Shown: one piece after another, positions 12,001 to 30,000 of the stretch
Numbering within the stretch: position 1 is the first letter of the stretch
How the letters are laid out: each line of letters opens with the position of its first letter
Assembly: GCA_963662275.1 (NCBI GenBank)
Contig: OY759316.1
Coordinates: 3,552,001 to 3,616,000, forward strand
From: Candidatus Cloacimonadales bacterium
GTDB taxonomy: Bacteria > Cloacimonadota > Cloacimonadia > Cloacimonadales > DAONDQ01
Reading direction: 5' to 3'
Length of the DNA stretch: 64,000 nucleotides
Position numbers: made by a program

Positions 12001-15000
12001 ACTGATTGTGGTGCACCATAAGTACCACCGACAGGATTGAAAGTCGGTTCTGCAACAGAAAATGAATAGACAGAAGTCACAACCTGGCTTGGTTCCATTT
12101 CACCATAGAAAGCTCGCGCCTTGATTGTCGTCGTTCCTGATACGCTTATTGGCGCAGAATACAAATTTGATGCAGGGGTAGGGTTCGTACCATTGGTTGA
12201 ATATCGAATCTGAGCACCTGCGGTAGCTGAGGTAATGGTCACAGATTGCGGTGTGTTATAGGAGCCTGCAGGCAGATCAAAAGCTGGGTCAGCTACAGTT
12301 AATGTATAGACGGCAATACCTATCAGACTTGCATCTCCACCTTGATTGAAGGCGATAGCCCTGATAGTTGTCGTTCCTAGTATTTGTACTGGATCCGAAT
12401 ATAAAGTTGAATAGATAGTAGGTTCATCGCCATTCGTCGTGTATCTTATTTGTGAACCTGCAGTCGAGCATCTGATGGTGACTAATTTGGTTATGTTATA
12501 AGAACCACCGGCTGGACTGAAAGTCGGTTCAGCCACTGTTAATGTATAGATGGCAATCGCTATCAGGCTTGAATCCCTGCCTCTACTGTTTGATTTAGTC
12601 TTTATACTTGCAACATTACCGCGACTGAGTGTTGTAGTTTTTTCACTTGAGACATCACCTTTACTGAGAGATTTCCCCTTTACATTTGAAACACTACTTT
12701 TTGCATGTGTTTTAACCAGTACACTGGATACACCACCTTGGTTGAAGGCAATCGCCCTGATAGTTGTCGATCCCAATATTTGTATGGGTCCGGTATATAA
12801 AGTTGATGAGATCGTAGGTTCATCACCGTTCGTTGTATACCGAATCTCAGTATCAACCGTTGTACATGATATTCTAACCGTTTGTGTAGAGCCATAGGTA
12901 CCGCCAACAGGATTGAAAGTCGGTTCAGCCACCGTTAATGTATAAACAGCAATACCAATCAGACTTGAATCCCCGCCTTGGTTGAAGGCAATCGCCCTGA
13001 TAGTTGTCGAGCCGAGGATTCGTATGGGACCTGTATATAACGTCGATGTGATCGTAGGTTCATCACCATTTGCCGTATATCTGATCACCGATCCTTGAGT
13101 CACACATGATATGCTTACAGTTTGTGTCCCGCCATAAGTACCACCTGGAAGACTAAAAGTCGGTTCTGCTACGTTGAATGAATAAACAGCAGAAACGATT
13201 TGGCTTGAATTCCAACCTTGCTTGAATGCTCTCACCTTCAAAGTAGTTGTTCCCAGAATACTGATCGGATTTGAATATAAAGTTGAATTAACAGTTGGAT
13301 CGATACCATCTGTAGTGTATCTTAATTCGCTCCCGGGAGTTGCACAAGCTAAACTAACAGATTGGGGCGTGCTATACGAACCACTGACAAGGCTGATCGT
13401 TGGATTATCCACTGTTAATGAGTATAGAGAAGTCATTATTTGACTTGGATTTAAACCCGCTTTGAATGCTTTTGCCTTTAACGTTGTCGATACCTGAATA
13501 TCTATTTCACCTGTATATAAAGTAGAAGCAAAATTAGGGACCATTCCATTTGTAGTGTATCTAATTTCTGCATCGAGAGTGGTACATGAAATACTGACAA
13601 CTTGAGGGGTATTATAATTTCCGCCTGCTGGTTGGAAAGTAGGGTCAGCCACGTCAGTCACTGATGTAATAATATAACTAGCAGAAGCTGTGAGACTTGT
13701 ATTCCAATCTTCTTTAAATGCTACTGCCTTTAAAGTTACTGCTTCCGTGATTTTTATTGCTCCAGTGTAAGGCATGGATGTCACTACCGGTTCTGTCCCA
13801 TCAATAGTATATCTAATTTCAGCACCGTAGGTTGAACAGGAAATAGTTACCATCTGTTGATGAGCATATGTACCCGAAGCTAAACTGATAACGGGAGTAG
13901 CTATTGTATAGATTTCAGGCTCTGTGGTCTTATGACTGCAACTGACAAGTGTAAAAAGCAGTAAAATACAATAAACAATCCATGTCATTTTTTTCATTCG
14001 ATTCTCCTAAAAAAGCGGATTATGTAAAAGTATATAAGTCATGATTTCAACTAGAATCTATAACCGAGAGAGACTGTTGAAGAATAGAGTTGAAAATCAG
14101 AATTCGTCATCGTATCACTAAGATCATTGATATTGAAATCAAATCGAAAATCAAGAGACCATTCATTCTTGCCAATATCCCATTGGTATAAATCGTTTAA
14201 CTTCCATCCAAATCCAACAATGAAGCCGTACTTTAGATTAAGCATGTCATCTGTAGCTGTGGATATTTTCTTATAAATAAAAGAATGGTAGTTATCAGTA
14301 TCGTTTTGGCTGTCTAAAACCAGTTGATTCATATCATCTTCTAAATCATCCAATCTCGGACTCCGATTATTTTTATGATTCATCAGGAAAGAGAAGGAAG
14401 GTCCTACATAACTGAAAACGCTGAATTTTTTTGTCCTTTTTTCAGTGTATCGAGAAATGTTTTGCTGAAGCATGAGAAGAATTGGTACAGTCACATAATC
14501 TAACTGTGTGTCCACATATCCGGTTAAGGAATGATTAAATAAACTGACTACAATTGAGTCACTATTATATTCAATAAAATCCGGATATTGATTATCAAAG
14601 GAATAGCTATAACTATATCGTTGCCAGAGAATTTCCGGTTGTAGTAGAATAGTTGTTGCAGCTTGGTGCATAGGGAATGAAAAGAATAGACCCAAGTTCT
14701 GGGATGTTCCAATACTGCCGTGTTTCGAAGTATTTGTGTATCGCCCCATGGGGTGGAGTGATTGATCAGAATCTTGAATGTAAAATTCATATCGTAGCTT
14801 ATAATTCAATTCATTACCCCATATTGAACCGACTCCAGCCCCATATTTCATACCCCAGTTAAATGTCTGAGGTGATGGCTTGTTATCAGAAGATTCAGCT
14901 TTTGTATTATCTGGCACAATCTGAGGTATCTCTTGAATACTATCCATATAATTAAAGACTTTTTCTTTCTCCGGGCTGGAAGAATTTCCTATAACCATGC

Positions 15001-27000: not shown

Positions 27001-30000
27001 CGCAACACCAACGATGATCACACTTAGTACAATCAGAAGTATTTGTTGTGTTCCCATTTTAAGCTCCTTTGTTTGTTTTTGTGAAACATTAAGATCTAAA
27101 TTTTTTAGATCTGCCAAAATTTTATCAATCACACTATGGAAGAATCATCAACCTATAACGCAAGGAGTGTACCACATTTGAAAAAAAATAGAAAAAACAA
27201 GACTATCGTTTATGCATATACTGTAACGTATTGATATATTGGCAGATGAGATATAACAAAAGTTTATTGTCTTTGCTCTCTTTTTTAATTATTCGTTGTT
27301 TAAATTGATAATATGACATATATTAAAGACATTATACATGGAAAAACACTATTATATGACATTGTTGCTTTTGAATCTCTCACCCTGCAGGATTTATCTC
27401 CGAGATGACTAATGCTAAATGATGATATAAAGTTTATTCATTACGAACTGAAGATGAACAAAATAAATGATAAAATCTATGTTACCTTAACTAAATTAAC
27501 TCAGAGCAAATGATCAAAATGTTTTTGAGAATTTAATTCCAGTATTCCTAATTTGACTATCAAAATTAGGTAGTCATTTACACAGCAGTATGATACACGA
27601 CCAAAGAAATCATGGAACAATCCGGCAAATGCGGAAACCAGTACAATCACCGACGTAAGTAGGGTCGTTACTGTTCCGGTATGAAACAACACACATGTCG
27701 TAAGTTGTGAACCAGCAGCCACCGCGACGTATACGCCGAGCATCACTAACAGCACCATGGGGATTATTTTGTGCACCGCTTGCATAAGTACCATTGATGT
27801 CCCAATTCCACTCCCAGACGTTACCGCTCATATCATACAGCCCCAATTCGTTAGCTGCTAAGGTACCGACTGTGTGAGATGTGCCACAGTTGTACCAAGC
27901 GACAAGTCCGATAGTATTACTTCCACTATAAGTGTAATTGTGGGTCAAATTACCACCCATTGCTGCAAATTCCCATTCCGCTTCTGTGGGAAGACGATAA
28001 CCATTGGCTGTCCAAGAGCAGGATATATTGACGTGATTATTATCATTTACATTCCAACCCGCTGGCCAAGTGTCTGGATTAGTGCCATAAGTGCTGTAAG
28101 TGTAGCAAGGTGTCAGACCTTCACTAATGCTGCGTCTATTGCAATATTCGATAGCATAATACCAAGACACATAATTAACTGGGTAATTCGCACCAACTCC
28201 GTAACCATGAGAAGGATTCGATCCCATTACTAACGAATCCGCAGACTGTGTAATTTCAAATTTATCAATGTAAAACGACGATACAGTAACATCTGAAGTG
28301 CCATTGTTAAGTGTTCCACGTTCTACGAATACAAAATTATCTGGAATTTCTATTGATACAGTCATTATTCTGTAAAAATGATAAAATCCTTGTATATAAC
28401 TTGTCCAATTAATGGTTCCTTCTGTCTTTGTGAAACTACCCTCTGAGGAAACATTTGTGAAAGATACTGAGCTTATGGAATCGGAACCTTCCACTATATA
28501 ACTTCCAGCATAAGGGACTTCAGTCCAGGAAATAATTAGAGAATCACCAGTTACTTGAATTGAAACATCATCAGGTGGATTTACATCAAAGCTATCCCTT
28601 TCACTAAAATATGCTAATTGTGTGTGAGTACTGCTTTGAGCATAATCAGGGCTGGTACCACATAATCCAATAATTACAAAACAAAATAGTGAAACTAGTA
28701 TTGTTGTTTTCATAATATACCTCCGTATATAATTTAGAGTATTTTCATGAAAAGCAAAATAACTTTTAATAATTGGAATTGAAGAAATATAGTGAACAAT
28801 ATTTCTAATTCACTTCAATTGCTGTAAAGAATGGGTAGAAGTTGATAGACAGTAGCTTATAGTATGAAGAAACATTGAGAGTACAGCGCTCCCATATTTT
28901 GAGCATAAGAGGGGGGATATTTTTACTCACATTTGAAAAGGATGCTTGATCAATCCCCCCTTGGGAAGGGGGGTAGGGGGGTCTTTTTTCAGAACAGTGT
29001 CTCCAATCCCAGACTCTTTTCCCGTGCAATTAACTTTTCTTGTAAATCTTCGAAAATACCACCTATGTTCTCCAAAACATCATGATGTGCATATCTAATC
29101 ACTATTATCCCGAATTCTCTAAGCAACTCGCTACGTTTTCTGTCATAACTCTCTTTCTCTCCGTGACTATCACCATCAATTTCGATAGCAACCTTGAGTT
29201 TAGAGCAGTAAAAATCTACTATAAATGATGAAATTGGCTTTTGTTTTGTCCATTTATATCGGATTAGCTCCCTGTTAGATAAAATATTCGTCCACATTTT
29301 AATTTCATCTGGATTACCCGCTTTACGGTTTTCTCTTGCATATTGTTTCAAGATAGGATCATAAGGAAATATTCTATCTTTATTATGCATTTACCCTCCA
29401 ATATTAGGTGCAAAGTATCTTTTCGACCCCCCTACCCCCCTTCTCAAGGGGGGATATTTTGCCGAAAAGGATGTTTGATCAATCCCCGCTTGAGAAGGGG
29501 GGATATTTTGCCGAAAAGGATGTTTGATCAATCCCCGCTTGAGAAGGGGGGGATATTTTGCCGAAAAGGATATTTATCAATCCCCGCTTGAGAAGGGGGG
29601 ATATTTTGCCGAAAAGGATGTTTGATCAATCCCCGCTTGAGAAGGGGGGATATTTTGCCGAAAAGGATGTTTGATCAATCCCCGCTGTTAGCGTGATATA
29701 GAATGTACCACCTTGGGAATGATCAATCCCCCCTTGGGAAGGGGGGTAGGGGGGTCTTCTTTCAGAACTGTGTCTCCAATCCCAGACTCTTTTCCCGTTC
29801 AATTAACTTTTCTTGTAAATCTTCGAAAATACCACCTATATTCTCCAAAACATCATGATGTGCATATCTAATCACTATTATCCCGAATTCTCTAAGCAAC
29901 TCGCTACGTTTTCTGTCATAACTCTCTTTCTCTCCGTGGCTATCTCCATCAATTTCGATAGCAACCTTGAGTTTAGAGCAGTAAAAATCTACTATAAATG

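Follow-up and report, generated by a model that had tools for sequence, protein, structure and literature searches.

Type IV filament operon of a Cloacimonadales bacterium with pilins that lack a class III leader peptide

Type IV pilins are defined by their class III signal peptide in the accessible parts of published reviews, which also count the prepilin peptidase as one of four proteins that all type IV filament systems have (PMC10191384, PMC4471445). How, then, might a filament be built from pilins whose genes encode no such leader? The question is raised by a window of 64,000 nucleotides from a Candidatus Cloacimonadales bacterium (contig OY759316.1, positions 3,552,001 to 3,616,000), in which an operon, with the gene positions and minus-strand orientation reported by an earlier survey of this genome, codes in order for three pilins, PilC, PilB, minor pilins, PilT, PilM/N, PilO and PilQ. 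Judged from its genes alone, it would specify a machine like a type IV pilus, able to retract and built of subunits that never carry the usual leader. The features, in window coordinates, are as follows.

37532..38629, minus strand: histidine kinase paired with the sigma-54 activator
36114..37535, minus strand: sigma-54 activator (PilR-like); in relatives the orthologous gene immediately adjoins the pilins on their upstream side, at a distance of about 9 kb here
27160..27174, minus strand: promoter-like site of the sigma-54 (-24/-12) type, 103 nt upstream of the ATG of pilin 1
26614..27057, minus strand: leaderless major pilin 1, 147 aa, starting M-G-T-Q-Q, GGAG shortly 5' of the ATG
26145..26588, minus strand: leaderless major pilin 2, 147 aa, M-G-T-Q-Q, in-frame stop 5 codons upstream
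25676..26119, minus strand: leaderless major pilin 3, 147 aa, M-G-T-Q-Q, in-frame stop 11 codons upstream
25637..25656, minus strand: terminator-like hairpin separating pilC from the pilin genes, 8 pairs, 7 of them G-C
24056..25396, minus strand: PilC platform protein, PF00482 E 3e-23
22214..24037, minus strand: PilB extension ATPase, PF00437 E 1e-98; best NCBIfam model TIGR02538, 398 bits, below cut-off
21801..22211, minus strand: leaderless PilV/GspI-like (first) minor pilin, labelled from position, Glu5 counted from Met1
21226..21792, minus strand: leaderless PilW/GspJ-like (second) minor pilin, labelled from its fold model, pLDDT 92
20353..21210, minus strand: regulator with receiver (PF00072 E 7e-27) and cNMP-binding-like domain (PF00027 E 0.002, below cut-off)
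19128..20339, minus strand: PilT retraction ATPase, TIGR01420 314 bits against a cut-off of 319
16932..19055, minus strand: putative PilM/PilN-like fusion with C-terminal TPR domain, matching TPR families only
16060..16935, minus strand: putative PilO-like protein, labelled from position, without family match
14051..16063, minus strand: PilQ-like secretin (PF00263 E 1e-24) with C-terminal outer-membrane beta-barrel domain (PF13568 E 1e-7)

The hairpin would favour an excess of pilin mRNA. The PilQ-like protein, a short secretin with no AMIN match in a Pfam search, has TIGR02515 as its best NCBIfam model, below cut-off, with its secretin domain above cut-off. PilP-like and FimU-like genes were not recognised in the leaderless-pilin system. 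A large lipoprotein gene lies 3' of pilQ, here and in relatives. The same genome holds the separate canonical pilus operon that the survey had reported (C1:4307021-4321139), whose prepilin has a 10-residue basic leader ending in Gly, followed by Phe1 and Glu5, and a single pilD (C1:454561-455340), away from the leaderless-pilin operon.

Translation starts of the pilin genes

The survey's finding that M-G-T-Q-Q begins directly behind a ribosome-binding site, with no class III leader, is borne out by a GGAG motif a short way before the ATG of each of the three and by the upstream stops, which make a leader impossible for pilins 2 and 3; neither has an alternative start codon between the stop and its Met. 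The frame of pilin 1 is open for 25 codons up to a GTG at 27132, where the survey had placed the end of the operon, and this extension lacks an SD-like motif and places Lys, not Gly, before the Met; the ORF call from this GTG is probably an over-call. An in-frame stop lies 2 codons upstream of the first minor pilin, and the 43 open codons upstream of the second contain no ATG, GTG or TTG. Both major and minor pilins fall outside the definition of class III signal peptides as hydrophilic leaders ending in Gly or Ala before the hydrophobic tract (PMC4471445, PMC10191384). Contigs from two public runs, possibly the source of this very DNA, cover positions 13900-27400 with no differences and no gaps, so that no leader is hidden by an assembly error.

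The pattern extends to related genes. The locus scan used a subgroup with Gln3 (alignment A3) because the broad alignment (A2) was too variable, and its 80 loci from several phyla are therefore biased away from Cloacimonadota. An upstream in-frame ATG was absent in 113 of their 114 pilin genes, and an ATG, GTG or TTG in 110; the median distance to the upstream stop was 4 codons, with a stop at most 10 codons away in 95/114, and the class III motif was absent from all 80 loci. The homologues number 773 and, among the best 120, 114 start M-G-x-Q-Q, two V/L-G-x-Q-Q and four are longer calls containing the same Met, slightly different from the survey's counts (771, 115 and three longer calls). The leaderless-pilin observation is confirmed, with better support than was originally claimed for it.

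Linkage to a filament machine, and the lack of a prepilin peptidase in the loci, also held: 40 loci with full flanks encode PilC in 38, PilB in 37, PilT in 35 and PilD in none. PilM/N-like (34/40) and PilO-like (31/40) orthologues recur as well; with no family match in Pfam or NCBIfam, these two labels of the survey are carried by position and conserved orthologues. The pilin family comprises 1,813 clusters at 50% identity and at least 5,413 at 90%, occurs in 168/232 Cloacimonadota genomes, and includes arrays of up to 13-15 major pilins with variable heads.

Pilin fold, filament machinery and likely use

No pilin family in Pfam, NCBIfam or ESM Atlas scored above threshold for the leaderless pilins, and the major pilin does not match the N-methyl-Phe motif with Glu5 (PF07963/TIGR02532). 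Having no Pfam or NCBIfam model, the family would escape motif-based surveys. The pilin fold is nevertheless recovered from the models, as the survey had held. That of pilin 2 (pLDDT 90.6) has a helix at 3-55 followed by a beta-sheet, and the ten best fold matches of the major pilin model are all pilins, led by Thermus thermophilus PilA4 (6xxd; Z 8.4, rmsd 2.9, 108 aligned); Foldseek against the PDB gave nothing at E 0.001, with PAK pilin at rank 27. The PilW-like model matches Thermus TTHA1219 (5g23; Z 12.9, rmsd 2.7, 139 aligned), XcpW (10.6), EpsJ (9.9) and GspJ (9.3). Despite these matches, the control rows show Thermus itself with an A24 peptidase and with pilin motifs of the canonical kind, and identity to the leaderless pilins is only 10%. 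Conservation in A2 peaks in residues 1-20 (0.82, 0.80) and is lowest in the head (0.28-0.38), a pattern as in pilins, while Glu at position 5 or 8 occurs in 0/251 major pilins and Pro within 6-40 in 1/251.

At its N-terminus the PilV-like pilin matches the profile of the major pilins, residues 1-20 on 1-20 (E 4e-4). The survey had noted Glu5 in the minor pilins of other loci; in the first minor pilin it is not the rule, as among 38 PilV-like pilins 24 have Gln at position 5, 6 have Glu and 1 has Asp. The idea that methionine aminopeptidase rules set the acidic residue at +5 was ruled out, its position being independent of the second residue (large against small second residue: PilV-like position 5 in 17 against 13, PilW-like position 6 in 6 against 20). 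Four PilX-like tip pilins with a lectin-type LamG domain are encoded elsewhere in the same genome, the V- and X-like labels being assigned by position. Searches of PDB sequences with minor-pilin profiles returned nothing significant, and a complex prediction for the minor pilins (0.37 against 0.01 for the best control, contact agreement at least 66%, partner pLDDT at least 55) lends their association weak support.

In common with the type IV filament superfamily, the system has a pilin fold, an extension ATPase and a platform protein. Type II secretion, marked by a GspE-type ATPase, GspC/L/M and no PilT, does not fit, as PilT is present and groups with PilT rows in the tree; PilB scores 398 bits with its own model against 362 with GspE models. 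In this tree, from a quick search with few named references and with three rows labelled by identity, a branch with SH-aLRT 97 has all 39 PilB proteins labelled leaderless on one side, and the GspE rows lie outside. With the type IVa pilus the system shares the pilin fold, PilB, PilT, PilC, secretin, PilM/N- and PilO-like genes, a PilV/W/X-like minor set and sigma-54 control of the pilin gene; points of difference are the missing class III leader, major pilins without Glu5 or Pro22, the absence of PilD from the locus and from most carrier genomes, a separate PilB clade and a fused PilM/N.

The sigma-54 control predicted for the pilin gene is like that of PilSR systems. The -24/-12 pattern seen before pilin 1 lies within 300 nt of 24/142 related pilin genes against 3/395 controls (pilC/B/T/MN/O/Q), rpoN is present in the genome, and the activator at 36114..37535 is the best match here of three relatives' activators (53-59% identity).

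These features bear on what the filament does. Its uncleaved subunits might instead form a short endopilus in the periplasm that serves secretion, like a T2SS, or the uptake of DNA, a reading that competes on function only and that we consider unlikely, if worth weighing. The closeness of the PilW-like subunit to T2SS folds and the short secretin without AMIN would suit it, and the large lipoprotein gene could encode a substrate. Against it stand PilT in most loci, the long arrays of major pilins with variable heads, the lectin-type domains of the PilX-like pilins, the PilSR-like regulation and the Thermus pilus protein as best PilW-like match. A retractile adhesive pilus, binding glycans or surfaces under sigma-54 two-component control, is the function we think fairly probable from these genes; the PilX-like LamG proteins may bind glycans, to go by their domain family.

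Prepilin peptidase and the question of cleavage

The survey stated that every carrier it checked also has a prepilin peptidase. This holds in Cloacimonadota, where the peptidase is near-universal (197/232 genomes overall, 141/151 good genomes) and this genome alone therefore cannot show independence, but it fails outside the phylum. There, PF01478 was not found in 38/50, 70/78 and 78/94 carriers, three partly overlapping samples counted without a completeness figure for the genomes. The negative genomes include single-chromosome assemblies and isolates with a full machine, and the search was positive in 12/14 control genomes, archaeal and Tad-type included. Where it occurs, the peptidase tracks canonical pilins: among the 50 carriers these were present in 12/12 peptidase-positive genomes against 1/38 peptidase-negative ones, while PilB, C, T and M/N adjoin the pilin in 33 of the 38. 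For three single-chromosome records (G237, G250, G263) and two isolates (G254, G268), a query with this genome's own PilD gave at best E 0.18 and the SPP family nothing above cut-off, with a PilW-like pilin present in all five.

Some peptidase misses are likely, since 6/13 genomes with a canonical-pilin match in one of the comparisons lacked a peptidase match; those six canonical matches lie on contigs of 2-3 kb (three), on a 10 kb contig (one) and in remnant clusters on longer contigs (two). The 'chromosome' records of G240 and G256 have runs of N at these loci and were dropped as complete examples. The zero ATPase result for G256 comes from a prematurely ending pilB in a scaffold with gaps, and its weak PF06750 match was rejected as a peptidase, the 345-aa protein reading like a radical SAM enzyme. 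With the machine intact and neither A24 peptidase nor canonical pilin detected in most carriers sampled outside the phylum, the survey's proposal of a PilD-independent branch is supported.

To say, as the survey did, that translation begins where a mature pilin normally has its N-terminus was too strong, as the register against most solved pilins is about +3 for the major pilin and +1 for the PilW-like pilin. Given this offset, Met1 may sit on a vestigial, uncharged and uncut stub of 1-3 residues. The same offset could mean that a leader of minimal length (Met-Gly or Met-Gly-x) continues to be removed, by PilD in genomes that have it, such as this one, and elsewhere by an unrecognised protease. 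Gly2, found in 146 of the best 150 major pilins, is near-invariant as Gly(-1) would be, and Lys/Arg-Gly near the start of 8/37 PilX-like pilins resembles a cleavage site. Yet Gly2 occurs in only 8/38 PilV-like and 15/36 PilW-like pilins, which leaves no shared cleavage Gly, although the PilV-like and major pilins agree in their N-terminal register; the operon maps contain no recognised protease gene, and the A24 peptidase is missing from most outside carriers. In favour of such cleavage, the mitochondrial T2SS-derived system (miT2SS) shows that another protease can be invoked when GspO is missing, in the part of PMC8134430 consulted; against it, known leaders have 6-26 aa according to the accessible text of PMC4471445. 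We judge such cleavage improbable.

Much less credible still is that these are not pilins at all but Sec-secreted proteins whose class I signal peptide is removed after Ala21. Residues 19 and 21 are small (Ala21 in 196/251), and Pfam and NCBIfam offer no pilin match; the reading is largely refuted by the N-terminus, which is the most conserved part and has a 22-residue hydrophobic run with no basic n-region and its first charge at median position 36, by the pilin fold with a weak sequence match to a Geobacter pilin (E 0.007), and by tight pilC/pilB linkage, while JGI labels many homologues 'Tfp pilus assembly protein PilE'. Leaders missed through a wrong start, frameshift or assembly error, for which only the open extension of pilin 1 and the four longer calls could speak, are refuted by the upstream in-frame stops here and in related genes and by the identical contigs, and we give this virtually no chance.

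Proposed assembly and comparison with known systems

We think it likely that the locus represents a separate type IVa-like pilus clade, spread over several phyla, which has dropped cleavage and methylation and assembles uncleaved pilins. As the gene starts show, major and minor pilins are translated without a class III leader and with a hydrophobic helix that sets in within the first 4-7 residues; by established biology, the uncharged helix 6-27 would serve as SRP/Sec signal-anchor and leave the head in the periplasm; and, to judge from gene absence, no prepilin peptidase would act. The pilin would be ready for assembly as made, with no charged leader anchoring it in the membrane and at most deformylation and Met removal beforehand. 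A PilV/PilW/PilX-like tip complex, its PilX-like subunits coming from the four distant genes, would then prime assembly, PilB and PilC extending the filament through the secretin and PilT retracting it. More speculatively, an uncharged Gln4-Gln5 core, possibly with formylated Met1, might replace the salt bridge between Glu5 and the N-terminal amine, and about 3 extra helix residues the melted segment Gly14-Pro22; this last step is doubtful, and is weakened by the possible deformylation of N-in membrane proteins after insertion (PMC5454389). On balance we lean, by a little, towards an ancient type IV filament class of single origin in Cloacimonadota, Calditrichota, KSB1, Ignavibacteria/Kryptonia and Balneolales, which would need only three of the four core proteins held to be universal and polymerise its subunits uncleaved, the initiator (possibly formylated) Met and a Gln pair standing in for the salt bridge of methyl-amine and Glu5 and the alpha1 helix being unbroken.

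Known systems share parts of this. MSHA loci also lack a prepilin peptidase, but MSHA always co-occurs with another system's peptidase (PMC6668835) and has no PilT (PMC10191384), as far as the available text of these papers goes, whereas most sampled carriers outside Cloacimonadota have no peptidase. The miT2SS is a type IV filament system without a GspO homologue, yet its GspG, according to the portions seen of PMC8134430, retains the polar anchor together with Glu+5, its cleavage being ascribed to another protease, whereas the pilins here have no leader to remove. Streptococcus sanguinis PilC likewise joins a pilin moiety to a lectin module at the tip (PMC9934059, in excerpt), in a monoderm system with class III signal peptides. 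In the excerpts available, the CPR pilus of PMC13278184 is an unrelated pilus type, the pilins of PMC12075869 have leaders, and PMC9563170 and PMC4471445 refer to archaeal clusters or a phylum with no peptidase detected, but not to pilins that lack leaders. The literature covered, with subscription papers thinly represented, does not describe this family; its loci could appear as generic systems in supplements such as the PMC6668835 system tables.

A natural system without leader or peptidase would make testable the need for cleavage and methylation, the role of Glu5 and the exit of pilins from the membrane. Cultured carriers without a detectable peptidase include Stygiobacter electus and Gracilimonas sp.

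Leaderless pilins in the window and in related genomes

The gene layout of the type IV filament operon is borne out in the window, as is the survey's finding that its pilins carry no leader peptide. Each of the three tandem pilin genes encodes 147 amino acids, begins M-G-T-Q-Q and has a GGAG motif upstream:

26614-27057, minus strand, leaderless pilin 1
26145-26588, minus strand, leaderless pilin 2
25676-26119, minus strand, leaderless pilin 3

An in-frame stop precedes pilin 2 by 5 codons and pilin 3 by 11, no start codon intervening, which leaves no room for an encoded leader; a longer call of pilin 1 from GTG 27132 is without an SD-like motif and places a Lys before the Met. 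The window stretch is identical in public contigs from two runs, possibly of the same source DNA. Elsewhere the genome has a canonical pilus operon, with a basic prepilin leader of 10 residues, and a single, distant pilD. The names of homologues are suggestive of Cloacimonadota. A fourth leaderless pilin is an orphan on the same contig (C1:3871646-3872098) with no pilus gene nearby.

The reading of the leaderless major proteins as type IV pilins is backed by the predicted fold, a weak profile match to a Geobacter pilin (E 0.007), the JGI names of many homologues and a conservation pattern that peaks at residues 1-20 and drops in the head. The alignment-based model (56 rows, pLDDT 90.6) presents a helix at residues 3-55 and a beta-sheet head, and its ten top structural matches among 48,161 solved chains consist entirely of type IV pilins and pseudopilins, led by Thermus PilA4 with a modest Z of 8.4 (rmsd 2.9, 108 aligned); a Foldseek search with the major pilin returned nothing significant. 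The second minor pilin of the window is, from its model, clearly PilW/GspJ-like (Z 12.9).

The family comprises 1,813 clusters at 50% identity. Among the best 150 homologues the start is M-G-x-Q-Q in 140 and an M/L-G variant in 6, two are called two residues short, one is longer and one is a kinase fusion. The homologue P0153 has an apparent Ser/Thr-kinase-like domain N-terminal to its leaderless pilin domain. In the best 80 of 359 confirmed loci, drawn from Ignavibacteria, Kryptonia, Calditrichota, KSB1, Balneolales, Cloacimonadota and records labelled Bacteroidota, an upstream in-frame ATG is absent in 113 of 114 pilin genes, an SD-like motif (loose pattern) precedes 91 of the 114, and no locus presents a class III motif. 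Full-flank loci (n = 40) contain PilC in 38 cases, PilB in 37, PilT in 35 and PilD in none. The minor pilins of related loci, chosen by position, are likewise leaderless. Position 2 of the PilV-like proteins (n = 38) is Asn in 17, Gly in 8, Ser in 5 and Thr in 4, and position 5 is Gln in 24, Glu in 6 and Asp in 1; PilW-like proteins have an acidic residue at position 6 in 26/36, and PilX-like proteins a basic residue within the first five positions in 36/37. A locus labelled Sphaerochaetaceae (L110) has leaderless major and minor pilins, reflecting either transfer or mis-binning, and the locus L051 (genome G239) has two leaderless operons back to back in a genome with three peptidase-linked canonical systems.

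A quick IQ-TREE search of 70 ATPase domains with few named references placed the 39 PilB labelled leaderless, hand-picked from a larger set with duplicates and three of them labelled by identity, on one side of a branch with an SH-aLRT of 97. On the other side are 25 other extension ATPases, among them HofB, GspE and the canonical enzymes that the same genomes encode. A single origin is compatible with these sequences, though not proven by them.

Register and filament core

The proposal that Met1 equals mature residue 1 is only roughly right: eight pilin rows start at offset +3, and PilA4 at offset 0. The Geobacter alignment places Gly17 on Gly14 and Phe27 on Phe24, but Leu7 on Leu6. The PilW-like pilin aligns with XcpW, EpsJ and GspJ at offset +1, so that Asp6 of this family falls on Glu5; the window copy has Gly there. 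The major pilin would then be mature-like and longer by about three helix residues, or else retain an uncharged stub of three residues, and cleavage is unneeded under both readings.

Among 251 major pilins, charge occurs within residues 1-27 in two, Glu at position 5 or 8 in none and Pro within 6-40 in one. Known pilus cores are described as having a bridge from Glu5 to the N-terminal amine together with a melted segment (PMC10191384); in leaderless filaments an uncharged core would take the place of this arrangement. One may speculate that Met1 could remain formylated, because SRP is reported to block deformylation of nascent signal anchors; according to the same source, deformylation of N-in proteins may follow at a later stage (PMC5454389).

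Prepilin peptidase in carrier genomes

The survey had reported a prepilin peptidase (PilD) in every carrier that it checked. The enzyme is indeed common in Cloacimonadota, the window's own phylum (peptidase in 197/232 genomes, pilin in 168/232), within which the need for it cannot be judged, but most sampled carriers outside the phylum are without a detected peptidase. In 50 genomes from the 80 loci, picked for long flanks and contigs, the peptidase family PF01478 exceeded its cut-off in 12, with one further sub-threshold match. Canonical TIGR02532 pilins were found in the same 12 genomes, and the other 38 gave one weak match; in 33 of these 38, PilB, PilC, PilT and PilM/N adjoin the pilin, joined by PilO and PilQ in 28. 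A class-wide sample of 151 genomes around an Ignavibacterium genome (completeness 95 being the value requested, not per-genome figures) has the pilin in 78, eight of them with peptidase, and in seven of these eight a canonical pilin lies within ~1.3 kb of it. Sampling at order level around a Gracilimonas genome gave the pilin in 94/101, 16 with peptidase. The samples overlap by a few genomes, each shared between two of them, and kin are not independent. Gracilimonas, other Balneolaceae and Stygiobacter electus include cultured carriers in which no peptidase was detected.

Searches of five of the best assemblies, three single-chromosome records (G237, G250, G263) and two isolates (G254, G268), with PilD of the window's genome and the SPP family gave nothing credible. 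PF06750 had no match in the three single-chromosome records, nor N_methyl in four of the five genomes or in a further genome, G429. G237 contains the whole operon in one piece from major pilin to PilQ, including all three minor pilins.

Six genomes have a canonical-pilin match without a peptidase match, and in two of these the match lies within a remnant cluster on a longer contig, so some peptidases have probably been missed by the search or the assemblies. Missed detection is no plausible cause of a 76-90% absence, since peptidase was detected in 141 of 151 good genomes of the window's own phylum. The remnant clusters L151 (G387) and L152 (G410) hold canonical-type pseudopilins and a PilC-like gene, with no peptidase detected.

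The leaderless system would work like a type IVa pilus, yet it is without two characters that define the superfamily of type IV filaments, a class III signal peptide and a prepilin peptidase. Loci for MSHA pili are described as having no peptidase of their own, yet borrowing one (PMC6668835), and the mitochondrial system as being without GspO but keeping the processing features (PMC8134430). In the open literature, supplements aside, we found no description of the leaderless pilin family. Comparative evidence argues strongly that the leaderless pilin system is a real feature.

Function, regulation and neighbouring genes

We favour a retractile adhesive pilus, on the grounds of PilT, the major pilins in many copies whose heads vary (13 matches in one carrier, G095, and 15 in another, G225), a terminator-like hairpin after the window pilin genes, putative tip pilins with lectin-type domains and probable control by sigma-54; an endopilus for secretion or DNA uptake is a possible alternative. 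The sigma-54 promoter-like site at 27160-27174 recurs before 24/142 related pilin genes versus 3/395 control genes, and the activator/kinase pair of 36114-38629 has its orthologues next to the pilins in relatives. Between these regulators and the pilins, 28989-36000 contains four nearly identical DUF559 genes of 402 bp, repeats of 49 and 56 bp, and a transposase paired with an ATPase gene, IS21-like in appearance.

The window operon has no PilX-like gene. Four lie elsewhere in the genome, each encoding the lectin-type domain Laminin_G_3 over cut-off:

C1:1274803, plus strand, PilX-like gene
C1:1276228, plus strand, PilX-like gene
C1:1280402, plus strand, PilX-like gene
C1:2774061-2775149, minus strand, PilX-like gene

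One of these PilX-like proteins was predicted, weakly, to form a complex with both minor pilins of the window (score 0.37 versus 0.01 for the best control), with contact agreement of at least 66% and partner pLDDT of at least 55; at benchmark scores of up to 0.60, 18/157 solved complexes and both passing mismatches (2/215) reached the mark. Resemblance to tip complexes of known structure may account for this pass. The second and third PilX-like genes are separated by an apparent integrase-like and transposase-like pair (L169:8022-10037).

Within the operon, 20353-21210 encodes a receiver and cNMP-binding-like protein, a possible sign that cyclic nucleotides control the motor; Balneolaceae have a related protein of 166 aa in a similar position. 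Two related operons (L159:9236-10132, L155:16344-17231) encode a membrane protein of ~300 aa in which a PilS-like transmembrane domain is combined with HisKA; no ATPase domain was matched in it, and BLAST found no match in the window's genome. The secretin (14051-16063, 670 aa) has a fused C-terminal outer-membrane beta-barrel domain; orthologues have ~617 aa in Balneolaceae and mostly ~370-430 aa elsewhere. Starting 54 bp after pilQ, 9114-13997 encodes a lipoprotein-like protein of 1627 aa that has a formylglycine-enzyme-like domain and 15 Fn3-associated repeats. Different large lipoproteins, with LVIVD repeats, follow pilQ in relatives, and such proteins are possibly partners or substrates.
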